A DNA stretch of 64,000 bases from Shigella phage SHFML-26. The stretch lies in sequence record KX130862. The stretch is one strand, 5' to 3'. Of this stretch, positions 151 through 57,862 are shown piece after piece. The notes beneath the pieces are model-generated. The model was not told the DNA's origin and ran no database searches. It saw only the letters and a program-made list of their open reading frames with translations. Within the stretch, counting starts at the first letter, position 1. Each line of letters begins with the position of its first letter. The translations under genes and the position numbers were made by a program.

Positions 151-414
151 TCATAGTTCAATCTCAGCGATTTTCATTTCATTATTGTTAATAGCATTTT
201 TAAGACTATCCGAAAGAATTACATTCCAGTGGTCATTCATATGACCATTAACTAAGCGTGTAATTTCTTCGGGAGTTGAAAAATAAGGCGTATCAGACTC
301 CCAATGCGATAATCCTAAGCGAGTATAAATCATGCCTTCATCATCGCTAGAATATTCAACTGACACAAACTCATCAGTTATTTTATGTTTAGCGTAATAA
401 AATTTAAATTTCAT
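151..414 (-). CDS. hypothetical small protein (87 aa)
   Basis: ORF track 151..513; start moved to ATG at 412-414 (MKFKFYY) behind GGAG SD and early promoter. Confidence 0.45.
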   Translation of the reverse strand: MKFKFYYAKHKITDEFVSVEYSSDDEGMIYTRLGLSHWESDTPYFSTPEEITRLVNGHMNDHWNVILSDSLKNAINNNEMKIAEIEL

Positions 415-420
415 TTTACT

Positions 421-457
421 CTCCAAATCCGTATCAGTTGATAGTTGTATAGTACCA
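421..457 (-). repeat. conserved promoter-leader cassette CTCCAAATCCGTATCAGTTGATAGTTGTATAGTACCA (copy 1)
   Basis: Near-identical copies at 27018-27054 and 54181-54217; partial copies at 52752-52777, 57783-57803, 8420-8441. Confidence 0.6.
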
Positions 458-494
458 CGGTCCTTGTGGTATGTAAACCATTTTGTGAAATTTT

Positions 495-1052
495 TTAAAT
501 GGAAAGATACCATCCGCTGTAGTTGCTTTTTCTTACAACCTTACGAAGGTCTTCTCTATCACCGATGAACTTCGGAGTGTATTGGATGACACCTGGATGA
601 ATTTCTTTAGTGTTGAATATAATTATACAGTCAGCGACTTGATGATTTAGAATGGGCCCTAGATTTATTCCAGAACCATATGGATACTCTCCGCTGCATC
701 CTGTTGTCACCGAAATCCAACGTGAGTCAGTTTGATGTGTCTTAACTTCTACACGAAGCCCGCAGTATCTTGGATGCGCCAATACATCCCATGCATATGT
801 GTACGGATCATCGACATCTTCTTGACCTTTGTTAACATACCCGCTCATCCAATCTGCTACAAAAAACTCTGCGTACACAGCGATACGGCATCTTTCGATA
901 ACTTCTGCCTTATCCTGATTTGGGTTTTGTTTTAAAGAGTATCTTGCAGTATCAACAATTTTGACCTTCATTTCACTAGTCAAGTCACTGTTCGATAGGG
1001 TAAATGTCGGAATCTGAAATAGTCTCTGTAACCCCGGATTCGTTTTCTGCAT
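495..1052 (-). CDS. denB: putative endonuclease IV (DenB-like), 185 aa
   Basis: 185-aa ORF downstream of rIIB; assignment by size and position only. Confidence 0.4.
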   Translation of the reverse strand: MQKTNPGLQRLFQIPTFTLSNSDLTSEMKVKIVDTARYSLKQNPNQDKAEVIERCRIAVYAEFFVADWMSGYVNKGQEDVDDPYTYAWDVLAHPRYCGLRVEVKTHQTDSRWISVTTGCSGEYPYGSGINLGPILNHQVADCIIIFNTKEIHPGVIQYTPKFIGDREDLRKVVRKSNYSGWYLSI

Positions 1053-2518: not shown

Positions 2519-4696
2519 TTAGGCCGCAAGGGCCTTCATAGTTTTAGCGATTTGAGAAACTTCATCATCACTTAAAGAGTTGCGATAACCGATGAAGTCG
2601 GAAACAATACGGAATTTCTTGGTAAACTCAGCAACCATTTTATCGCTGTTTTTTGAAGCATTATTTGATAATACATCAAAAAGATTAGTTACTGTCCAGA
2701 TGTCATGACCGATGGTATCTTTTCCACCATTAAAATATACGCCCCGTAATGAACTAACCATATTAGCGAGTCGTGTATATTCTTCAGAAACTTCATCTAT
2801 ACTGAAGTACTTCATCATAAAATCTAACTCAGGATACTTGATAATTTTATCAATATATCGTTTAGCTGAACTTGAATAACCTACATACTTATCATAATCT
2901 ACATCATCAAAAGCATCTACATATAAATCACGCAAAGCTTCAAAAATACATTGGCACTGACCGAGTTCTTTTACCTTTTTCTGCAAAAGCGGACGAATAA
3001 CATAAAATTCATTAATGCCAATAAGATTAGCCATACGAATCAAAATATTCATAGATGGATGACAAAGAGATGTAGTACCATCCATAGAGAAAATATCAGA
3101 ACGATGCATATACGCTACATACCCAGTAATTTCATCTGCTTCTGATGTGAGCGTAAATAATTCCTCTTTTTCCCAGCGCCCGTCTTTAATTTCAAACTTA
3201 AATGCTGTAGCAGCTTTAGGACGAGGAGCTTTACTTTTAACTACCTTTGGAATATAACTTTTTACTAAAGCTTCAATTTCTGACAAATAATGAATGTTAA
3301 CTTCATCACTTTCAAACATCGCCATAATATCAGGGAGTAAATCAATCTGCGATTCTACTTCTGGATTAATAAACAGAAGACGTTCGTTATGATGAATATT
3401 CAAAGTGTTATTAAATTCACTATCATCTAACGCTCGTGCTAATCCACGAACAATATTAACACGATTTTTAATATTATCAATAACGATATTAATTTTTGTT
3501 GTATTAATACCAAACAGACGATAACTTGATGCAACGGCTGAAGTTTCATGACTTTGCTTAATGCGCTTCAGTCGAGGGTCAAGATTTACTTCATACACAA
3601 CTCCTGCATTGCATAACTTACTATCAGGTTCAAACATGCTTTGCATCTTCTTATATGACAGATTTTTAGTCGTAAATTTGACTGAATTACTAATCATATA
3701 ATCTCGAGCAGAATACCCCATCTTCATCAATTCACGATATGTGTGACGAGGAGATGTAGATTCTTTAAATCGTTTTACATCTTCATTAAATGCTTTCTCA
3801 CTGAGTTCTTTAACTCGTTCAATAATATTTTTACGAGTGCGATCATCCAGTGAAAGAGCCTCGCGAGATGGAGCAATATCAAGTGAACCCATTGGAAACT
3901 TAATGTAATTCACTTCATTGCGAATGCTTAGCCAGTTACGGTCTCTAATAACACCATCAATAGGATAAACAATACCGCCATAGATAGCATATAATCCACC
4001 ACGATCAGGCCAGTATCTTTCTGGATTTACACCATAATAATCATCAAAATCAGGAAAATAATCAATTTCGCGGTCAAGACCATTAATGATAGCCAAATCT
4101 TTGAACGGTCGCATGATATAAGAAACTTCATAAGCAAAGTTTCTAAAATCTTTTTCTTCAACTGGAACTACGATTTCAATACCAGTTTTATCATCTGGAC
4201 CCATTTCTTTTACGAATGTAGGTTTAATCTGTGGGCCATCACCATCCATGTAAGCTACATAACCACGAATTTCACCTTTATGATACGAAGTAATACTAAA
4301 CGTATCAGTATAACTAAACGGAGATTTAGAACCTAAACCAAATCCGCCAATAAAGTCATTAGATTCAGCTTTAGATGAACTGAAGTATGAATTATACAAC
4401 CCAGGAGAATTATCATCACCTTGAATATCAAAATCACTCATACCCGGACCAAAATCTCGACAAACAAATCGCGGATCTAAACGTCCAGGAACTTGTATAA
4501 TAAATTTTTCAGGATTTCCATTAAGTGCATGAGCATCAATCATGTTAGTAATCAATTCACGGACTACTGCGCGAATCTTGTTTGTATACAAATCAGATGA
4601 CAGAATTTTAAATACTTTAGGAGATGCTGTGATGCTAAATGCTTTTGATTTAGAACCATTACCAAGAATTGTTTCTTTTTCAGTAGTGATAATCAT
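2519..4696 (-). CDS. rIIA: rIIA protein (725 aa)
   Basis: 725-aa ORF, recognised rIIA sequence and length. Confidence 0.9.
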
Positions 4697-4935: not shown

Positions 4936-4965
4936 ATTATACCACATCCTTGTGGTAAAGTAAAC
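4936..4965 (-). promoter_or_regulatory. T4-type early promoter (GTTTAC -35, 18-nt spacer, TATAAT -10) for rIIA.1-rIIA-rIIB
   Basis: Minus strand reads GTTTACTTTACCACAAGGATGTGGTATAAT. Confidence 0.6.
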
Positions 4966-6782: not shown

Positions 6783-6834
6783 CACTTATCCTCGTTTGGT
6801 TTCGGGAATATTATACTCCGGTAATCATAAAGCT

Positions 6835-6853
6835 AAAGGCCCGAAGGCCTTTT
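6835..6853 (-). terminator. stem-loop (AAAGGCC-CGAA-GGCCTTT), possible bidirectional terminator
   Basis: 7-bp stem; weak U-run on minus strand. Confidence 0.35.
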
Positions 6854-7121
6854 ATTTAAAACGGATAGTCGAATCCTTAAAGAACAACCCAGAACATACG
6901 GTTCCTTCTACTTTTTGCCCAGTAGGTCCAATAGCACGAAATCCAGTATGCTGGAAATCATTTTCAGAGCAACCGAACCAGTTATATCCAGTGATTTCAA
7001 TATTAGTAAAACCACTTGAAGACAAAATTTTAGTTGCATTATCAGCATCAGTACATCCTACTAAAGACACTACTAGTACTAATGCCGCGATAGAACGATT
7101 AATATATTTCATAATTTTCAC
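6852..7121 (-). CDS. putative lipoprotein (signal peptide with LVGC lipobox)
   Basis: ORF track; N-terminal signal and lipobox. Confidence 0.5.
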   Translation of the reverse strand: MKIMKYINRSIAALVLVVSLVGCTDADNATKILSSSGFTNIEITGYNWFGCSENDFQHTGFRAIGPTGQKVEGTVCSGLFFKDSTIRFK

Positions 7122-8084: not shown

Positions 8085-8302
8085 TAATAAATTTCCTTCC
8101 AGTAAGTTGTGCCATCTTCAGTGATTTCACGGAATACACCATAAATTGGTTGTTTATCACCGACTTTCTCATATACATAAACCGAAGTCAAGTGAGTAAA
8201 CTTGATAGTGTGTTCCTTTTGAACTACTACCAAATCTGGATCGAATAATACATCTTCAAATTCATCATTAGTGCAATTCTGAACAATTTTACGTTTCATC
8301 AT
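8084..8302 (-). CDS. hypothetical protein
   Basis: ORF track. Confidence 0.45.
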
Positions 8303-8473
8303 AATTTCCTCATTAATTGAACATTGGAGCGATGCGTTTCAGAAGAGTATCAGCGCACCTTTAACGAATTATCCATTTTATTCTTCAAGTTGTTTTCTGT
8401 ATCAGTAGTTGATATTGATATAGTACCATAATCAACTACTGATGTATATAGTTTTATGAAAAAATTTTAAACT

Positions 8474-9009: not shown

Positions 9010-9039
9010 ATTATACTCTGGTCCCAAGAGTTTGTAAAC
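9010..9039 (-). promoter_or_regulatory. T4-type early promoter
   Basis: GTTTAC ... TATAAT on minus strand. Confidence 0.55.
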
Positions 9040-21077: not shown

Positions 21078-21111
21078 GTATCTCAATTTCCAATAAAAGT
21101 AAACAGTTATT

Positions 21112-21576: not shown

Positions 21577-21606
21577 ACTATACCATAGTCTTGTCAGCTT
21601 GTAAAC
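21577..21606 (-). promoter_or_regulatory. T4-type early promoter upstream of dmd
   Basis: GTTTAC ... TATAGT. Confidence 0.5.
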
Positions 21607-26630: not shown

Positions 26631-27011
26631 TCACTTAGTCAAATTTTTTACGCATGAATTATAAGAATTCACTACATACTCCATCGGAGCATTTTTACCA
26701 GTACGCCATTGGTAATTATTAGCCCAATTAGCCCAAAGTTCGGCACAGTAGTTTTCAATTTTTTCTTCGCGTGTAATTACATCTGAATTACGATACGCTT
26801 GAGCAGATTCATCTGGACGAATAGCTTCGTCAAAATTCGCCTGCATTTGTTCTACTGTCTGTTTTGGAGCCTCTTTATAACACTTAACATTAGGATTATA
26901 AAATTTGCTTGAACAATTTACAATTTTTCCTACATCAGACTGATTTACTACCGGTCCTTGAGCTACACAACCAGTAAGACCTAATGCAATAACCAAAATA
27001 GCGATTTTCAT
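26631..27011 (-). CDS. lipoprotein (imm.1 position)
   Basis: Start moved to MKIAILVIALGLTGC; lipobox; early promoter and GGAG SD. Confidence 0.5.
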   Translation of the reverse strand: MKIAILVIALGLTGCVAQGPVVNQSDVGKIVNCSSKFYNPNVKCYKEAPKQTVEQMQANFDEAIRPDESAQAYRNSDVITREEKIENYCAELWANWANNYQWRTGKNAPMEYVVNSYNSCVKNLTK

Positions 27012-27017
27012 TTTACT

Positions 27018-27054
27018 CTCCAAATCCGTATCAGTTGATAGTTGTATAGTACCA
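27018..27054 (-). repeat. conserved promoter-leader cassette (copy 2)
   Basis: Identical 37-mer to 421-457. Confidence 0.6.
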
Positions 27055-27075
27055 TGGAAGAACAGGGATGTAAAC
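27046..27075 (-). promoter_or_regulatory. T4-type early promoter upstream of imm.1-position lipoprotein gene
   Basis: GTTTACA ... TACTAT. Confidence 0.5.
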
Positions 27076-27161
27076 CGTTTTAGTTGAAAAATTTTTAAAT
27101 TGAATCCAAAGGGTCCAGAATCATCTGTTTTTCATAAGTATAGATTTATATTACTTGTATG

Positions 27162-27186
27162 AAAAAGGGACCCGGAGGTCCCTAGA
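27162..27186 (-). terminator. intrinsic terminator after gene 43
   Basis: GGGACC-UCCG-GGUCCC then UUUUUCAU. Confidence 0.6.
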
Positions 27187-27195
27187 TTTATTCTA

Positions 27196-29895
27196 TCAGC
27201 CAAACAGGAAGTCTAACGAAGCTTTTTCTTCATAGTCCATACCTGCCGATTCACACATACCTGCAAGCGGCTTAACAAACGATTTTTGGAACAAAGTTGA
27301 GTAGTCAATCCAAGATAGTACGTCAGAACGAATTTCTTTTGGAAGTTCTGTACCTGATGGCCAAGCAATGCACTTGTCACCAAATGGATTTCCTTCACGT
27401 AATGGAAGAACCATTACTTTATTTCCATCCAAAATTGGAGCTACACCTAAACCACTAACAGCTCGACGATAAGTTAGCACACCACGAATATGGAATGGGC
27501 ATTTAAATCCTGGCCAACCTTTATCATCATATTTCGCTATATCGTTCGCAGTTTTTACTTCAGCAATAACTTTATAGTCAAGTTGACGATATTCTTTCTC
27601 GAAGTTCTTGTAGTATTCTTGGACAGACTCTTCACCTTCCTGAAGAATACGACGAATACTTTCTTCGAGAGCTTCTTGCACCGCTTTTGGTGTTGAACTC
27701 TGCTGAGTTTCCATACCCATGATTTTTAGATGCGGTTCGGCAAATCGCTTATCTTCCATATCATAAACGTTCAGAGCATAACGTTTTTTCGCTTTCCAAA
27801 ATCCACCAACACCCTTTGAACCAAGCGGAGGGCAAGAAATAGCTTCACGGTCCATATGCATCAGATGCTCGCGGTTATTCATATAATCACATAACTCACG
27901 ATATGCAACATCAATCATAGGTTCCATCTTTTTCTTACCAAACTGATTCATGAATTCAACTAAATCATTTTGTTCTTTAAAGCGGTCAAGACCTACTTTT
28001 TCAATTACTTTATCTACACAAACATATACCGAATCAGTATCACCTGCTGCGATGAAATCTTCACCATTAGTTCCACATACTTTATTCAGATATTCATTAA
28101 TTTTGCGAGCAATCCATTGAATACCGACTTGACCGAAAATTGTGATAGCAGTAGCATTTCGCAAATCATAGTAGCGGAAATGAATATTACCAAGAGCACC
28201 ATAAAGACTGTTAATAAGAATTTTACGGTTCAACTGATTTGTGTTAGCAAGTGTAGCAGCTTTTTCACATTCTTCAATCAGACTGTTAAGAACAGATTCG
28301 GTGTAATTCGATAATTCGTTTAAGAAATCATCATTGAACTTAACATATCGTTCAACTTCCGGTTTAGTTGAACAGGACCCTGCGCCTTTCATAATAATCT
28401 TTTTAATAGCTTCGGCATTCATTTCTTCAGCGAACATTTTCTTTTTCCAATCTTTACGCTGGAAAAATACTTTAGCGATTTCCTTTGGAATGATACCTTC
28501 TTGATGCTTATCATACATCCATCCATTCGGAGAACAAGAATATTCATCACTCGGTTTAGGAGCTGTTCCTGCGATATATTCATGAATTGGATGAACTTTA
28601 AACTGCCCACGAATAGTCTCAGGACTAATGTTAACCTGACGAATAATGCTCGGATACAGAGACGTCAAGTCAAAACTCATAATATATCGACGAGCAATTG
28701 GTTTAGGTTCAAATACAAATGCACCCGGAAAACTCTGTTTAACGTGCGAACCTTGTTGAGGAATAACCTTATGTTCACCTTTCAATGAGTTAAAAATAAT
28801 AGCATCCCAAGTTTTAATAGGACTCATTACACCAGAAAAAGGCATTTTAGCATAATAAGACATACTTAAAACTAGATCGATAAACCCGCGAATTTTATCA
28901 ATTGCTTGAACTGATTCTACGTCAATGATGTTATAACTAATGTATCGTTGATGATTAGTCTCACGAAGTTTATTAATAGGACCGTCGTATGGTAATTTAC
29001 CTTTTTTGGTTTCATGTTGAGCAACTGATTCCAAAGAGAATGACGGCAAATTAGTAAATGCGAATTTCTTATACAAATCTAAATAATCAAGAATAGATAC
29101 GCCATCAATAGAATAAATTTCTTTGCTACCGTACATATTTTGAATTAGTTTAGATTTTACCCGACCGATTGGAGAGAAACGTTTCATACTGCGTTCACCT
29201 AGAATCATTTTAACGCGATTCATAATATATGGAACGTCAAACCCCTCAATATTCCAACCAGTAAAAATAGCAGGTCGTTTCTGTTCCCAGAGATTGATAT
29301 ATTCCATGAGCATATCACGCTCATTATCGAATGGCATATAAATTACTCGGTCAAGAATTTCTTGAGGAACTTCATCACCACCTTCACAGTCAAGCTTAGC
29401 AGCTAACTTTGCATCCCATTTTGATACTGAACCGTACATTGAATTCAAAAGGTCGAAAACATAAAAACGATCATCAATTGAATCGTAATGAGTGATAGCA
29501 TCAATTTCATATTCAGCTTTCATTGGGTCAGGAAATTTATCACCAGTAACCTCAATGTCACAGTTAGCTACACGAACAAATTTTCGGTCATAAACAATTT
29601 CTGAACCATACGTATCACTGATATAAGCGAGTTTAAAATCGTTCATACCGAGAGCTTCGAGACCGATGTCTTCCATTCGTTTCATCCAATCTCGAGCATA
29701 TTTCATTGATGGTAAATTTTTGAGGTAGCGCTAGTTTTTACCATAGATGTCTTTGTACTTTGACTCTTCCTTACAATGCCTAAACATAGTTGGAAGATAT
29801 TCTACTTCACGAGTACGTTCCTTTCCGTTTTCATCAATATAACGTTCAACAATGTTATTTCCGACTGTTTCAATAGAGATATAAAATTCTTTCAT
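27196..29895 (-). CDS. 43: DNA polymerase (gene 43, family B), interrupted by in-frame TAG at 29731..29733 (codon 55); longest ORF 27196..29706
   Basis: ATG at 29893-29895 ([14 protein letters not shown]...); exo and pol motifs (FDIE, YGDTDS); translational operator hairpin upstream. Confidence 0.85.
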
Positions 29896-29947: not shown

Positions 29948-29969
29948 CCAAATAAGGGGCCGAAGCCCC
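29948..29969 (-). terminator. stem-loop/terminator upstream of gene 43 leader
   Basis: GGGGCUUCGGCCCC then UUAUUUGG. Confidence 0.5.
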
Positions 29970-29973
29970 TTGC

Positions 29974-30195
29974 TTAAATTAGTACTATTTGTCGGTGAAA
30001 AATTGTCATTCCATCTGCATTAATTGACTTAACGACCGCAGTAAAGTGTTTTTGTTCTGGGTGAATTAATTTTTGAAATTCTACCTGAAATTTTAGTTGA
30101 AGGTTTTCTGGTAAATCGAAAAGTGTTTCTGTTGCAGAAAGATTATATTTTTCTTTAAGAGACGCCATGTATTCTTGTGGAGTTATAGCAGTCAT
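29974..30195 (-). CDS. hypothetical protein (73 aa) between regA remnant and gene 43
   Basis: ATG at 30193-30195, 1 nt after upstream TAA; ends just before terminator hairpin. Confidence 0.45.
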   Translation of the reverse strand: MTAITPQEYMASLKEKYNLSATETLFDLPENLQLKFQVEFQKLIHPEQKHFTAVVKSINADGMTIFHRQIVLI

Positions 30196-31002: not shown

Positions 31003-31026
31003 AATTATAAAGGGCCGAAGCCCTTT
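31003..31026 (-). terminator. intrinsic terminator after gene 45
   Basis: AAAGGGCUUCGGCCCUUU then UAUAAUUU. Confidence 0.55.
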
Positions 31027-31027
31027 A

Positions 31028-31714
31028 TTAAAAATCGTGGGTAGAATCAGCTTCAAGAGCTACTACATAATTCGCATGTTCACCTTCAAATTTAGCAGCA
31101 CCTTGTTTACCTTTTGCCCAGAGCAGAAGTTTATAATTTCCTGGTTGCATTTTCATATTTGCCATGTTGATAATGAAATTAAATGTATTTTCACCATCAT
31201 AATCACCAAGAGTCAAAGAATATTTAACACGGGTCAAAGCAGAATCTTCTACTTTATTAAAACCGTTAATTACGATTTTACCTTCTTTTACTGTGATAGC
31301 AATTGTATCAATCTGCAGACCACGAGATACACGCAACAGCTGTTGAAGGTCTTCAGCTTTAATTTCAGTAACAACAGATGCTACCGGGAATGGAATTGGT
31401 TTATTAGGAGCAACTACTGTGCTCGGATCAGCTGCTGGCCAAAAAATTGTTGAACGAGCATCAGCAATTTTAATATTTCCATCTTCTGACTGGGAAATTT
31501 CTGCATCGTCATTAACTAGGGACAGAATACCGAGAAAACCGTTCAAATCGTAAATTGCTACATCAAAATCAATAGTGTCAGAAATATTTGCTTCCGCATA
31601 AGTTGTACCATTAACTGCGCGAGTCATAATAAATTGACCAGATTTAAGCATAATGCCAGAGTTAATAGTAGCGAAATTTTTAAGCAGAGCAGTAGTATCT
31701 TTAGACAGTTTCAT
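31028..31714 (-). CDS. 45: sliding clamp (gene 45)
   Basis: 228 aa, recognised gp45 sequence. Confidence 0.9.
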   Translation of the reverse strand: MKLSKDTTALLKNFATINSGIMLKSGQFIMTRAVNGTTYAEANISDTIDFDVAIYDLNGFLGILSLVNDDAEISQSEDGNIKIADARSTIFWPAADPSTVVAPNKPIPFPVASVVTEIKAEDLQQLLRVSRGLQIDTIAITVKEGKIVINGFNKVEDSALTRVKYSLTLGDYDGENTFNFIINMANMKMQPGNYKLLLWAKGKQGAAKFEGEHANYVVALEADSTHDF

Positions 31715-36579: not shown

Positions 36580-36606
36580 TATAAAGCTAAAGGGCCGAAG
36601 CCCTTT
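36580..36606 (-). terminator. stem-loop/terminator after a-gt
   Basis: AAAGGGCUUCGGCCCUUU overlapping a-gt stop. Confidence 0.45.
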
Positions 36607-37807
36607 ATTTTGTAATAATGTCAAACTGTTCTTTAAAGCAGAAGCTTGAATCTTGATGCTGATACAAAAATTCATAAGCTTTTTCTCGCTCACGGTCATA
36701 AAGAGCTCGGTCAGATGACAGTTCTTTAATACGTTCAAATGTTGATTCCATGTCATTTTCATCAAACCAAATGATACCGCTATCATGCGAGGTCAAAGGA
36801 GTATTATCAACACGGAATTTTAAATTTTCGCCAGTAGATTTCCAAAATACCGGAATTGTTCCACATGCACCAAGCTCGAGATGAGTATATTCTAAAGAAC
36901 GTTGTAGATATTTTTTGTCCAACTTACTCAACTGATAACCAAATCCGGATTTACTCATGCGTTCAAGCATTTCGCTATTTACATAACGGTCAAGAATTTG
37001 CGTTGGCAAATTAGGAGCAATTTTAATTTGGTCTACTTGATGAAGACGATAATACTCATATGGAATTCCTTTTTCTTTAATAGGAATGAACGCTGGAGAA
37101 CGTTCCAGACCTTCCATAATAGTACTTAGCCCAGCAGGTTTAAGATGTTTTTCGTGAAAATCAAACATCTGATAAAAACCTTTCCATGTAGTCGTACGAC
37201 CAATCCAGCGGTTGACATTCATGTTAATTTCAGAAACATCTTTCCAGTAGGTTGATCGAACCTTCGCAATATCCATAGGAGGCTGAAAGTTGTATACAGT
37301 CGGTGCTTCTTCAATATCATCAAACAAAGAAACAGTTTCTGGATACCATTCTTTCATCAGAACTTTATTAAAATCACCATTATCAGAATGACTAAAAATA
37401 ACATCAGCTCGACGAACAGTTTCTTCTAATCCCAAATTTCGGCGCAAAGAAAGAGAAGAATGGTCATGTTGATAAACTACAACACGAACTGAAGGTTTAA
37501 TGTTATCAATAATTTTTTTATAGTTATTAATAGTGTCTTCTTCGACTGAAGTAGCAGGAACTGAATTGATAATTAGAATATCACAATCATTTACCAGCTT
37601 AAGTGTTTTATCGTATTCTTTTGCCAATAAAACCGGAATTGAAAATGATTTATAATCATGTGCACAGTTACGAGTAAATGATTTATCTTTAGCATAAACC
37701 AAAGTTACTTCATGACCATTTTTAATAAACCAATCACGTTGCTCAAGAGAAAATTTAGTTACACCGCAACCTTCAAGACCTCGAGCCATAAAAATACATA
37801 CTTTCAT
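36605..37807 (-). CDS. agt: DNA alpha-glucosyltransferase (a-gt)
   Basis: 400 aa, GT-B-like; position after gene 47. Confidence 0.8.
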   Translation of the reverse strand: MKVCIFMARGLEGCGVTKFSLEQRDWFIKNGHEVTLVYAKDKSFTRNCAHDYKSFSIPVLLAKEYDKTLKLVNDCDILIINSVPATSVEEDTINNYKKIIDNIKPSVRVVVYQHDHSSLSLRRNLGLEETVRRADVIFSHSDNGDFNKVLMKEWYPETVSLFDDIEEAPTVYNFQPPMDIAKVRSTYWKDVSEINMNVNRWIGRTTTWKGFYQMFDFHEKHLKPAGLSTIMEGLERSPAFIPIKEKGIPYEYYRLHQVDQIKIAPNLPTQILDRYVNSEMLERMSKSGFGYQLSKLDKKYLQRSLEYTHLELGACGTIPVFWKSTGENLKFRVDNTPLTSHDSGIIWFDENDMESTFERIKELSSDRALYDREREKAYEFLYQHQDSSFCFKEQFDIITK

Positions 37808-40221: not shown

Positions 40222-40242
40222 ATCCAAAAAGGGCCGAAGCCC
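40222..40242 (-). terminator. intrinsic terminator
   Basis: GGGCUUCGGCCC then UUUUUGG. Confidence 0.55.
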
Positions 40243-40443
40243 TTAGCTAAACTTTTTGGCACCCTTCCAGCCTTCGTACATCATTGCGACTGACAATGAC
40301 AAAGCTCCTTCACATGCTGCATACTTATTATTCCAGAACCAATTTAGAAAAACTTCATCCTCAATACCATTGTGTTTCATGTTCTGGAAAAATTTGGCGC
40401 GTTCTTCAGCAATTCGCTGCGATAATTTAGATTCAGGATTCAT
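40243..40443 (-). CDS. hypothetical protein
   Basis: ORF track; terminator hairpin at 3' end. Confidence 0.45.
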   Translation of the reverse strand: MNPESKLSQRIAEERAKFFQNMKHNGIEDEVFLNWFWNNKYAACEGALSLSVAMMYEGWKGAKKFS

Positions 40444-45727: not shown

Positions 45728-45767
45728 AATAAAACCCTTACCTTAAATAGATAAGGGTATTTATTAT

Positions 45768-45944
45768 TTAAGTATTGTAAAACATTCGATGCAATCGTTT
45801 ATACTGTCGAATCATCTTTTTAGTAGGACGAGAATAGGTTCCTACGCAAGTGGTCATATGAGGGTCCGTAGAATGTCCTTTAATAAAAAGTTTCCAAACC
45901 TTACCGCCATTTAACTTTTCAGTATAAACCAATTCGGTTTTCAT
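45768..45944 (-). CDS. small protein (58 aa) sharing C-terminus MIRQYKRLH.MFYNT with next gene
   Basis: Own translation; below ORF-track cutoff. Confidence 0.3.
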   Translation of the reverse strand: MKTELVYTEKLNGGKVWKLFIKGHSTDPHMTTCVGTYSRPTKKMIRQYKRLHRMFYNT

Positions 45945-45980
45945 TAAAATGCCTTGTCAGAAAAAGAATTTTGAGTTTTT

Positions 45981-46484
45981 TCAAGTATTATAAAACATTT
46001 GATGCAATCGCTTATATTGCCGAATCATTTGGTCAGAAAAAGAATTTTGTGTTTCAAGCCATTCAATGTACTCTGCGGCAGCTTGCATTAAATTTCCTTC
46101 ATAACCATCAATATCTTTTTTCAATGCCACTTTAGCTAATGCATATGAAATACGTTCACCTTGAAAAGCGGCTTTAGGCTTCTGAGCATCTTGGCTAGTT
46201 CTCTCTACAACTTCTTCAATTTCGCCATTTTCAACGGATTCAGTATTCCACAAGCACCAATACGTAATTGGCTTATCATAGATGTTAATAATCTTTCCGT
46301 CGGAAAGTTCAATTTCAATAATTCCAGTATCAGGCTCTATATCATCTTCACATTCTTTTGTAAGTTCACGAACTTTAAAGACAGTACCTGCACTAAGTTC
46401 CGGCCAGTAATTACATAGCCCTGTATCAACACGATTAATTCTAAACCACTTATCTACTGTAATCATGTCCCATCTCCATATCAA
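45981..46484 (-). CDS. hypothetical protein (pin position)
   Basis: 167-aa ORF after gene 49; assignment by position only. Confidence 0.4.
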   Translation of the reverse strand: MIWRWDMITVDKWFRINRVDTGLCNYWPELSAGTVFKVRELTKECEDDIEPDTGIIEIELSDGKIINIYDKPITYWCLWNTESVENGEIEEVVERTSQDAQKPKAAFQGERISYALAKVALKKDIDGYEGNLMQAAAEYIEWLETQNSFSDQMIRQYKRLHQMFYNT

Positions 46485-49790: not shown

Positions 49791-49820
49791 ATTATACCAC
49801 ATCCTTGTGGAAAAGTAAAC
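49791..49820 (-). promoter_or_regulatory. T4-type early promoter inside coiled-coil gene array
   Basis: GTTTAC ... TATAAT. Confidence 0.55.
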
Positions 49821-52212: not shown

Positions 52213-52740
52213 TTATGCGAGTACCGTCTTTAACCGTTCTTCAAACTTCCGAAGAGTATTCTGGCGTTCAGCTCTTTGCTTTTTGTAAGTTTCAATACGC
52301 TCTGAAATGAGAGTGTATCGTTCATTTACTGATTCTTTCATAAAATCAGGAATTTCACGAGAAGCTTTAATCTCATCAAATTTATCAATAACAGCTTGCT
52401 CTTCAGCAATTAAGTTATCATACATCAAAATATCTTTCTTGATGAACTCAATATCTTCTTGAGTTACACGAGATAATTTAGATGCTTTATCCTTTTTGTA
52501 TTGTTCGTTAGTATCACGAGACCAGTGTAATGTACGATTTTTATTCGTATTCTTGTAAATTTCTACAATACCAATCTCATCAATAATAACGATCCAATTC
52601 CAACGGGATTTGTAAATTTGTCCTCCATCAACTGTAATTTCACCTCCGATTGAGATGTCATTAAAGAACTTGCTTTGTGCTTCAGATTTAAATTTACCAT
52701 CGTTGTAATTTACCAGGTTGAAAATATCTTTAGCGTTCAT
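52213..52740 (-). CDS. hypothetical protein
   Basis: Start moved to MNAKDIF behind GGAGG and early promoter. Confidence 0.5.
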   Translation of the reverse strand: MNAKDIFNLVNYNDGKFKSEAQSKFFNDISIGGEITVDGGQIYKSRWNWIVIIDEIGIVEIYKNTNKNRTLHWSRDTNEQYKKDKASKLSRVTQEDIEFIKKDILMYDNLIAEEQAVIDKFDEIKASREIPDFMKESVNERYTLISERIETYKKQRAERQNTLRKFEERLKTVLA

Positions 52741-52800
52741 TTTGTGTTCCTCCGTAGTTGATAGTTGTATAGTACCACAGAGGAACGGTCTTGTAAACAA

Positions 52801-53205: not shown

Positions 53206-54174
53206 TTATTTCAGAAGAGTAACCTCAGCGATTTCTTCCCAACCGTTTTTGTCGGTCATAATAAAGTCAGCAAGATAAAGAGCAGTACGCAGTGAAACAT
53301 TACGTAAACGGTTAACATTGACTTTCATCCATGATAATGCTTTATAAGTTTCTTCATCAGAAAGACCGCGCTTTTGCATCATGTCGGTTGAAAGAATAAC
53401 ATCTTCAACCCTGACCATAATTTCTTCATTAGTGTGAACACCCAAATCTAAATAAACTGAGCGGGACACTAATGCTTGTAAATGTGGAGCAAGTTTAGTA
53501 CCACGGTCTAATTCGCGGTCAATATCAACGTTTGTGATAAAAACAATTGTTCCTTTAAATTCAAACTCACGGTCAATGCCTTTTTCTTCTAAGTAAGAAG
53601 ATGCAGTGCTCCAGCAGACTTTACGGGTCTCTCCAGTGTCCAGAGCAGCTTTCAGAAGATTAAGAATGTCCATATCAGAGAAAACATCCACATCATCAAT
53701 CAAAAGGACAGAATTCTCTTCACGATTATTCCAAAGCTGCTCATAAAGACCAATACCAGAGATTTTACCATTAATGCTTTTATATTCAATGTATCCAATA
53801 TCATTTGCTTTATTCAAAGCTTTATCTAAAGAATACGTTTTACCAATACCCGCCGCACCAGAGATAATTAATGAACGAATGTTTCCGTTAATAATACCAT
53901 TCGTCATCATTCCCATAACATTAAATCTTTTATTAATGCGGGTTTTCATATCTTCATACGATTCTTTAACTTCTTCAACTTTTACACCATCATATGAAAT
54001 GTCTGATTTGTAAACCCAAACACCGCGACGCTTACCGTCAATTTCAACAAAAACTTTACCATCTCCTTGTGCATCTACCGGAGCATTATCTGGGAACCAT
54101 TCGCCTAAGAGCTCAAAAGTTCCAGAGATTTCTTTACCGAAGTAGATACCCTTATTGATAGTTACAGTTTTCAT
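53206..54174 (-). CDS. P-loop NTPase (Walker A GAAGIGKT, Walker B VLLIDDVD)
   Basis: Motifs read in translation; start moved to MKTVTINKG behind GGAG. Confidence 0.6.
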   Translation of the reverse strand: MKTVTINKGIYFGKEISGTFELLGEWFPDNAPVDAQGDGKVFVEIDGKRRGVWVYKSDISYDGVKVEEVKESYEDMKTRINKRFNVMGMMTNGIINGNIRSLIISGAAGIGKTYSLDKALNKANDIGYIEYKSINGKISGIGLYEQLWNNREENSVLLIDDVDVFSDMDILNLLKAALDTGETRKVCWSTASSYLEEKGIDREFEFKGTIVFITNVDIDRELDRGTKLAPHLQALVSRSVYLDLGVHTNEEIMVRVEDVILSTDMMQKRGLSDEETYKALSWMKVNVNRLRNVSLRTALYLADFIMTDKNGWEEIAEVTLLK

Positions 54175-54180
54175 TTTATT

Positions 54181-54217
54181 CTCCAAATCCGTATTAGTTG
54201 ATAGTTGTATAGTACCA
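54181..54217 (-). repeat. conserved promoter-leader cassette (copy 3, one mismatch)
   Basis: 37-mer with single substitution. Confidence 0.6.
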
Positions 54218-54238
54218 TAAAGCTTTATGCTTGTAAAC
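54209..54238 (-). promoter_or_regulatory. T4-type early promoter upstream of P-loop NTPase gene
   Basis: GTTTACA ... TACTAT. Confidence 0.5.
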
Positions 54239-54254
54239 CGTTTTGTGAAAAATT

Positions 54255-54287
54255 TTTGAAATAAAAAAGGGAGCCCGAAGGCTCCCT
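54255..54287 (-). terminator. intrinsic terminator after nucleotidyltransferase gene
   Basis: GGGAGCCUUCGGGCUCCC then UUUUUUAUUU. Confidence 0.65.
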
Positions 54288-56848: not shown

Positions 56849-57015
56849 AATTACATACTCCTTTGAATAATATCAATAATGTTGTTCATCAGATTATAAG
56901 TAAACATTGGGTAATTATATTGAATCATTACATACACAACAAACAAAACTTTCATTCTCTTCTCCTTGACAGTTGACAAGATTACTATACCATAACCTTG
57001 CCAACTTGTAAACCG

Positions 57016-57579: not shown

Positions 57580-57767
57580 TATTCCACCACATATGACAGA
57601 GAGAATATTGCACACGCCATATGAGTTGCAGCTTCATCACACATATCATAACGTTTCTTAAGAAGTTCTACAAGTTCTTCACTAGTAACTTCATCCATGT
57701 CGACGAAAAAATCACCATTAATGATGACGTAGATATTTCCTTCTTGATTAAGTGCTTCAATTTTCAT
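57579..57767 (-). CDS. hypothetical small protein
   Basis: Start moved to ATG 57765-57767 behind GAGGAG and early promoter. Confidence 0.4.
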
Positions 57768-57830
57768 GATGTTCTCCTCTTTATCCGATAGTTGTATAGT
57801 ATCACAGTTCAAATGGAAAGTAAACCGGTA

Positions 57831-57857
57831 AAATGAAAAAAGTCTCCCGAAGGAGAC
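57831..57857 (-). terminator. intrinsic terminator
   Basis: GUCUCCUUCGGGAGAC then UUUUUUCAUUUU. Confidence 0.6.
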
Positions 57858-57862
57858 TAATG

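Follow-up and report, generated by a model that had tools for sequence, protein, structure and literature searches.

The 64,000 nucleotides analysed here, which we call the window, come from Shigella phage SHFML-26 (record KX130862), a T4-like phage of the genus Tequatrovirus. Over the first 3 kb, with denB, rIIB and rIIA, the window shares 97% identity with many genomes of this kind; its remainder runs collinear to T4, from rIIA to about regB. At positions 421–457 lies a 37-mer, CTCCAAATCCGTATCAGTTGATAGTTGTATAGTACCA, that returns without a mismatch at 27018–27054 and with one mismatch at 54181–54217. These positions and mismatches are those listed in an initial annotation of this DNA, and 100 dinucleotide-preserving shuffles gave a mean of 0.00 matches. 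The genes in the cassette regions are all encoded on the minus strand, so that the repeat has to be read as its reverse complement: every copy is a minus-strand element, its CTCC reads GGAG, and the genes downstream of the three copies start at 414, 27011 and 54174. With a repeat finder, the identity of the first two copies extends over 49 nt (409–457 and 27006–27054, including the minus-strand ATGAAA), a span in which the third copy has two mismatches. The full unit of 88 nt is only 78–83% identical among the copies, because the spacer of about 17 nt between the -35 and -10 elements differs from copy to copy. The partial copies that had been placed near 52752, 57783 and 8420 are real too, though shorter. 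Those at 52756–52798 and 57783–57825 have the -10 element and the first transcribed bases in common (TGgTAcTATACAACTATC), while the one at 8407–8449 is a diverged relative. The flanks of the different copies are unrelated within the genome.

Read in reverse complement, the unit consists of an A/T-rich UP tract, TTTACA, the copy-specific spacer of 17 nt, TGgTACTAT, a leader of about 28 nt, GGAG and ATGAAA; after TACTAT the repeat continues with ACAACTATCAACTGATACGGATTTGGAGAGTAAAATGAAA. Judged from the spacing, transcription probably starts about 7 nt past the -10 element. The cassettes, named c1 to c6, and the features around them are the following.

151–414, minus strand: ORF87 (87 aa, no Pfam family), the gene behind c1; its stop codon overlaps the start of ndd.6 (ATGA).
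409–500, minus strand: cassette c1, right after the denB stop codon (495–497) and at the same place in T4 and 544 phage records. UP-like A/T tract about 479–500; -35 TTTACA 477–472; copy-specific spacer 471–455, ending in TGG; -10 TACTAT 454–449; probable start near 442; leader 442–415; GGAG 424–421; ATG 414–412.
8374–8448, minus strand: cassette c6, a degenerate relative of leader A, in the motB–cef intergenic region. TATACA (-35-like) 8448–8443; -10 8425–8420; GAAGAATAAAA 8386–8376 (GGAG lost, now GAAG); ATG 8376–8374.
26631–27011, minus strand: imm.1 (DUF5481, lipoprotein-like), the gene behind c2.
27006–27105, minus strand: cassette c2, between gene 43 and imm.1. -35 27074–27069; spacer 27068–27052; -10 27051–27046; probable start near 27039; GGAG 27021–27018; ATG 27011–27009.
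27166–27183, minus strand: terminator-like hairpin after gene 43, about 90 nt upstream of the c2 -35.
52738–52797, minus strand: cassette c4, with leader type B, before the nrdC.8 homologue. -35 52797–52792; -10 52774–52769; TGGTACTATACAACTATCAACTA, common to c1–c3, then ACGGAGGAACACAAAATG; ATG 52740–52738.
53206–54174, minus strand: nrdC.10 homologue (weak AAA/STAND-type matches), the gene behind c3.
54169–54262, minus strand: cassette c3, between nrdC.11 and nrdC.10. -35 54237–54232; palindromic spacer; -10 54214–54209; probable start near 54202; GGAGAATAAAA 54184–54174; ATG 54174–54172.
54268–54287, minus strand: terminator hairpin (AGGGAGCCTTCGGGCTCCCT, then a T-run) directly upstream of c3.
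57765–57858, minus strand: cassette c5, with leader type C, before the mobD.5 homologue. -35 57824–57819; -10 57801–57796; ACAACTATCGG...; GGAG 57777–57774; ATG 57767–57765.
57858–57841, minus strand: terminator hairpin directly upstream of c5.

Elements of this make-up have been described as PeSLs (promoter-early stem-loop). They were defined in the phages RB49 and phi1; in RB49, mini-circles had crossovers that mapped to the stretch from the -10 element to the Shine-Dalgarno/ATG (Arbiol, Comeau, Kutateladze, Adamia and Krisch 2010, PMC2839356), and were then extended to T4 and PST as TTTACW-N17-TAYWAT with a Shine-Dalgarno sequence and an ATG at the 3' end (Comeau, Arbiol and Krisch 2014, PMC4122927). 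In the window, c1–c5 all read TTTAC(A/T)-N17-TACTAT with a TG two bases ahead of the -10, which is the sigma-70-like early promoter of a PeSL. A/T tracts of the type AAAAATTTTTCACAAAAC precede the -35 element. GGAG stands 7 nt before the ATG in c1–c3 and is present in c4 and c5 as well. The stem-loop part of a PeSL is provided at c3 by the hairpin directly upstream. Upstream of c1, which abuts the denB stop codon, and of c4, which abuts that of nrdC.9, the hairpin scan found no stem-loop. As direct repeats, c3 and c4 have 23 bp in common at a distance of 1,440 bp, with nrdC.10 and nrdC.9 between them. The proposal that every copy carries a -10, a start site, a leader and a GGAG Shine-Dalgarno sequence for a downstream gene is supported for c1–c5 on the minus strand; it does not hold for the copy at 8420, in which GGAG has become GAAG and the ATG opens only a remnant ORF of eight codons. 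A separate Shine-Dalgarno sequence serves the cef homologue, which starts at 8302. The mini-ORF of c6 (window 8350–8386, minus strand) reads MDNSLKVR. Its T4 counterpart has a perfect GGAGAATAAAATG and 11 codons, and in some relatives a longer reading frame, beginning with MDN, seems to follow the c6 leader.

A scan of the window returned about 19–20 T4-type early promoters on the minus strand. Of these, the form TACTAT plus ACAACTATC is limited to c1–c5, with c6 and one promoter at 21103 as loose matches; the other early promoters, roughly 12 of the 19 scanned, have a TATAAT-like -10 and unrelated leaders. We also considered a general enrichment of inverted repeats in the spacers or across the -10 and rejected it, the mean best arm over 19 early promoters being 4.84 against 4.51 in shuffled sequence. 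Individual cases do stand out, at the promoters at 21605, 4964 and 54237. Inverted repeats of 6–9 bp, either in the spacer or spanning the -10, lie on the minus strand at 21577–21605, 56984–57012, 9010–9038, 4936–4964 and 49791–49819; the one at 21605 reads ACAAGACTA-TGGTATAG-TAGTCTTGT. Two further kinds of repeat were noticed. A GC-rich hairpin, AAGGGCC-GAAG-GCCCTT, of the TTCG/CGAAG tetraloop type and with arms that read nearly the same on both strands, recurs between genes at 1332–1347, 1555–1570, 6827–6857, 29952–29983, 31007–31038, 36581–36611 and 40226–40258, and is terminator-like where it was scanned (1332–1347 and 1554–1571). In the gene 49/pin region, a 52-nt direct repeat with 87% identity occupies 45764–45815 and 45977–46028, 213 bp apart.

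Duplication of the genes themselves was examined as a source of the repeat and rejected: a pairwise blastp comparison of the five downstream proteins gave no convincing match, the lowest E-value being 0.024 (MobD.5 versus NrdC.10). The downstream proteins are unrelated, and therefore only the regulatory DNA is repeated. Gene 43, which precedes c2, shows a peculiarity of its own. Its ORF is listed as 27196–29706, and an in-frame TAG stands at codon 55 (window 29730–29760, minus strand), where T4 reads GKNCAPQKFPSM. As we read its alignment to T4, the cause is a set of three single-A insertions, separate from each other but all within about 25 nt, which shift and then restore the frame. Queried with 101 nt of this region, the best of 640 matching phage records gave 96% over 98 nt and none exceeded 99%. 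An intact gp43 is essential, and the TAG seems to reflect an error in sequencing or assembly, or else a mutant.

The leader had been described as structured, and here the folding calculations speak against the initial annotation. Folded singly, six leaders gave minimum free energies of -2.4 to -3.0 kcal/mol with z-scores from +0.13 to -0.69, no better than shuffles. RNAalifold returned 0 consensus pairs for eight leader-A sequences (window, T4, NBG2, RB68 and Shfl2; the sample is given both as these five named sources and as four genomes). Rfam had nothing at gathering score anywhere in the window, and a permissive search around c1 yielded only a chance miRNA match with E=0.31. The leader is not a structured cis-regulatory RNA. 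By eye, we noticed no likeness of it to the A/U-rich RegA sites of PMC3014915.

The end of the leader resembles a RegB target. Strong intergenic RegB/S1 sites follow the consensus GG*AGRAYARAA and are located in early leaders free of structure, for the most part at Shine-Dalgarno sequences, according to the review of T4 post-transcriptional control by Uzan and Miller (2010, PMC3014915). In c3, GGAGAATAAAA (54184–54174) agrees with this consensus at 11 of 11 positions and is the sole perfect match in the 64 kb, where 0.4 would be expected by chance; GGAGAGTAAAA of c1 and c2 agrees at 10 of 11. At the level of sequence, an unpaired intergenic GGAG plus RAYARAA in an early transcript is thus present. 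The leader 3' end is likely a combined ribosome-binding and shut-off site, which would explain why the last 11 nt of the leader are conserved. Of the shared regulatory RNA element that had been suggested for the repeat, what stands is this fit of the last 11 nt to the RegB/S1 consensus; what falls is the special RNA element, the motif being a linear one that is common to T4 early mRNAs.

We then compared the cassettes with those of other phages. Exact-pattern scans of IMG/VR and a DenB protein query produced mostly chance 15-mer matches and about eight T4-like loci, so annotated GenBank phage records were used instead. The c1 cassette is found in 544 phage records, at two to five places each among the records listed. 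Cassettes were extracted from eight genomes (window, T4, T2, RB68, Shfl2, NBG2, fPS-2 and Lutter), and PST was added for c2. In T4 the same cassettes occupy matching loci: one follows denB, and the others precede imm.1, nrdC.10 and nrdC.8. Across the eight genomes each locus retains its own spacer, while the sequence past the -10 varies. The combinations at the first two loci are as follows.

c1, leader A with ORF87: window, RB68, Shfl2.
c1, leader B (AGCTACGGAGGAGTAAAAATG) with ORF87: NBG2, fPS-2, Lutter.
c1, leader A with a different gene, RB32ORF266c: T2.
c1, leader A with an ACT insertion and an eight-codon remnant of ORF87: T4.
c2, leader A or leader A with ACT, with imm.1: window, T4, NBG2, fPS-2, PST.
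c2, leader A with an extra gene: Shfl2.
c2, leader B with RB51ORF048: T2, RB68.

As is typical of PeSLs, the neighbours of the cassettes are inserted, deleted or replaced: the gene at c1 varies, an extra gene stands at c2 in T2, RB68 and Shfl2, and T2 carries an extra module, composed of a terminator, a promoter and a gene, inserted upstream of c3. At c1 of T2, the substitute gene lies between two copies of the leader, of which one is intact and the other has decayed (CGGATTATTGAGTAAAATG). In Shfl2 (NC_015457), the nrdC.10 promoter, i.e. c3, at about 4170–4260 of the locus on the minus strand, contains a tandem duplication of the -10 and leader (…GATACGGATTTGGA/TGGTACTATACAACTATCAACTGATACGGATTTGG…, the stroke marking the junction), which looks like the product of unequal crossover or slippage inside the cassette. 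In T4, ORF87, which the window and many relatives possess, is deleted and only eight codons are kept, as the unannotated ORF MKIAEIEL (AF158101, about 167018–166992, minus strand; window 151–180), the stop codon of which overlaps the ndd.6 start (ATGA). Here AAATGAAA at the start codon has been joined to an identical octamer near the 3' end of the ORF. As read from the T4 sequence, this loss is explained by the 8-nt microhomology AAATGAAA, and two full cassettes would not be needed for it.

A further trace of exchange comes from c2. With 91 nt of c2 as query (spacer, leader and start of imm.1), none of 540 records was identical, and the best full-length matches reached 97.8%, an identity to the window c2 that is shared by T6 and seven other records, PST among the best matches. 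The differences were read in the alignment with PST: 2 of the 91 bases differ, PST having GGAGAaTgAA and the window GGAGAgTaAA, and at both positions the window c2 has the base that its own c1 has. The c1 form of the window is at least 99% identical in 54 records. By a rough estimate, the chance that two changes hit the only two positions by which c2 had differed from c1 is about 3 in 100,000. Because both c2 changes match the genome's own c1 and chance is very unlikely, we read them as a short c1-to-c2 conversion tract. Independently of this, an ACT insertion occurs in c1 and c2 of T4 and in c2 of fPS-2 and is missing from both window copies. Two nucleotide positions and one indel, followed in detail in eight genomes, suggest conversion. 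The recent recombination between cassettes that the repeat had been proposed to reflect gains support from these two bases, from the ACT in c1 and c2 of T4, and from the occurrence of the same promoter with different leaders and genes.

The divergence between orthologous loci points in the same direction. At c2, compared between the window and PST, T4, NBG2 and fPS-2, the end of gene 43 and the imm.1 coding sequence differ by 2–4%, the UP tract by 19–28% and the leader by 5–11%. Had the copies diverged as much as their flanks, this would have spoken against the initial annotation; the opposite was found, since the flanks are unrelated within the genome and the cassette diverges more than its flanks between genomes. 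The best explanation appears to be that paralogues are kept alike by exchange and that orthologues drift or get replaced. In these alignments orthologues drift and paralogues are alike; under strong constraint, an RNA element would show the reverse.

This bears directly on the idea that the identity is kept mainly by purifying selection on a cis-regulatory RNA or operator of a small regulon (ORF87/ndd.6, imm.1 and nrdC.10), for example on a protein-binding site in the leader core AUCAACUGAUACGGAUUU. Such selection would agree with the presence of leader A at the same three loci in T4, T2, RB68, Shfl2, NBG2, fPS-2 and PST and with its terminal fit to the RegB/S1 consensus, and the roughly 18 nt of AUCAACUGAUACGGAUUU, which have no assigned function, leave a small chance that it acts there on an unrecognised signal. 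The leader also holds a short palindrome, TATCA-N2-TGATA, which we tried as an operator or hairpin and rejected: it is not conserved, being broken in the window c3 (ACTAATAC) and having its loop enlarged by ACT in T4. The leader moreover lacks RNA structure and covariation, variation among orthologous leaders exceeds that of the coding DNA beside them, and in NBG2, fPS-2 and Lutter it is leader B, a quite different one, that precedes ORF87. These three belong to a class of 80–90% c1 identity that makes up about 259 of the 544 records. We therefore hold selection of this kind to be unlikely as the main cause. A narrower form of the idea concerns the 18-nt core AUCAACUGAUACGGAUUU alone, of which copies stand at three or four loci across the whole of Tequatrovirus. 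As a specific recognition element, the core could co-regulate a few early genes, namely imm.1, nrdC.10 and the gene after denB, which we regard as quite improbable; possible roles for the core would be that of a translational enhancer or of a determinant for RegB/S1 or another RNA-binding protein. If it were such an element, the shared sequence would bring about the conversion between copies, and conversion would not be the cause of the identity.

Common descent of old duplicates that have simply not yet diverged, with no ongoing exchange, would fit the conserved loci of the copies throughout the genus. It is nevertheless very improbable in our view, because paralogues within one genome share derived states that their orthologues lack (c1 and c2 of the window GGAGAGTAAA, c1 and c2 of T4 the ACT) and the c2 version of the window was in no other record of the 540 searched. 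Spacers and flanks are unrelated between the copies, and loci as old as the genus would be expected to show a comparable decay of the leader. Least credible, and hardly worth entertaining, is a small autonomous mobile element, MITE-like or associated with homing, inserted at several sites. There are indeed multiple copies near variable genes, in some relatives close to homing endonuclease genes (segE beside nrdC.10 in RB68), but terminal inverted repeats, target-site duplications and coding capacity are absent, every copy is oriented and placed as a functional promoter and ribosome-binding site ahead of a gene, and the copies sit at orthologous positions across the genus.

We consider it very probable, then, that the copies are cassettes of a T4-type early promoter and a translation-initiation region, forming a subfamily of the published PeSLs, and that their excess identity stems from recombination and conversion among the cassettes. 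According to sequence and T4 literature, host sigma-70 RNA polymerase would start at UP/TTTACA/TGn/TACTAT immediately after infection. The resulting mRNA would carry a short, unstructured leader of about 28 nt, and its GGAG 7 nt before the AUG should allow efficient translation. By the comparative evidence, the 45–50 bp that the copies have in common between the -10 and the start codon serve as a substrate of phage homologous recombination. Copies convert each other, as c1 appears to have converted c2 in SHFML-26, and genes are inserted, deleted or swapped at the cassette joints. Such exchange holds paralogous copies more alike than promoter function alone demands.

For annotation, the cassettes should serve as markers of genuine early transcription units and of ribosome-binding sites that are likely under RegB control. 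At these joints T-even phages swap accessory genes, which is of help in interpreting mosaic breakpoints when a new Tequatrovirus genome is analysed. The conversion of two bases at the imm.1 promoter shows, on a small scale and in a clean form, how phage regulatory DNA evolves in concert; the PeSL model as published gains no new principle from it, and the finding has little import beyond annotation. In kind, the element is known already, and in T4 itself also in place.

Compared with the PeSLs, our cassettes share the A/T tract, an early promoter that matches the T4/PST consensus, the Shine-Dalgarno sequence and the start codon, and at c3 and c5 also the upstream terminator stem-loop. They are likewise repeated in variable regions, beside insertions, deletions and replacements among close relatives; an exchange in the ndd region beside denB is the example given for PeSLs in 2014 (PMC4122927). 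As with PeSLs, the exchanges fall between the -10 and the ATG, here in the form of comparative traces only (conversion, leader swaps and the Shfl2 duplication). They differ in that the full layout is confined to c3 and c5, whereas c1 and c4 are without an adjacent stem-loop and the hairpin of c2 is 90 nt off. Mini-circles were mapped in RB49, while the SHFML-26 cassettes are known from sequence alone. The near-identical leader from -10 to ATG in a subfamily of three copies and the paralogue-directed conversion are not analysed in what we read of PMC2839356 and PMC4122927. With the RegB/S1 sites there is agreement insofar as GGAGAATAAAA of c3, and of c1 and c3 in T4, fits all 11 consensus positions and the cassette leader is intergenic, early and unstructured, as cleavage requires; the match is to a short, degenerate motif and is likewise a matter of sequence. 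Finally, T4 early promoters (Pe) form the UP/-35/TGn/-10 class (Hinton 2010, PMC2988021), and the cassettes have this same architecture at the same positions as in T4, downstream of denB and upstream of imm.1, nrdC.10 and nrdC.8. The general early-promoter consensus stops before the leader, whereas here the likeness between the copies runs through it.
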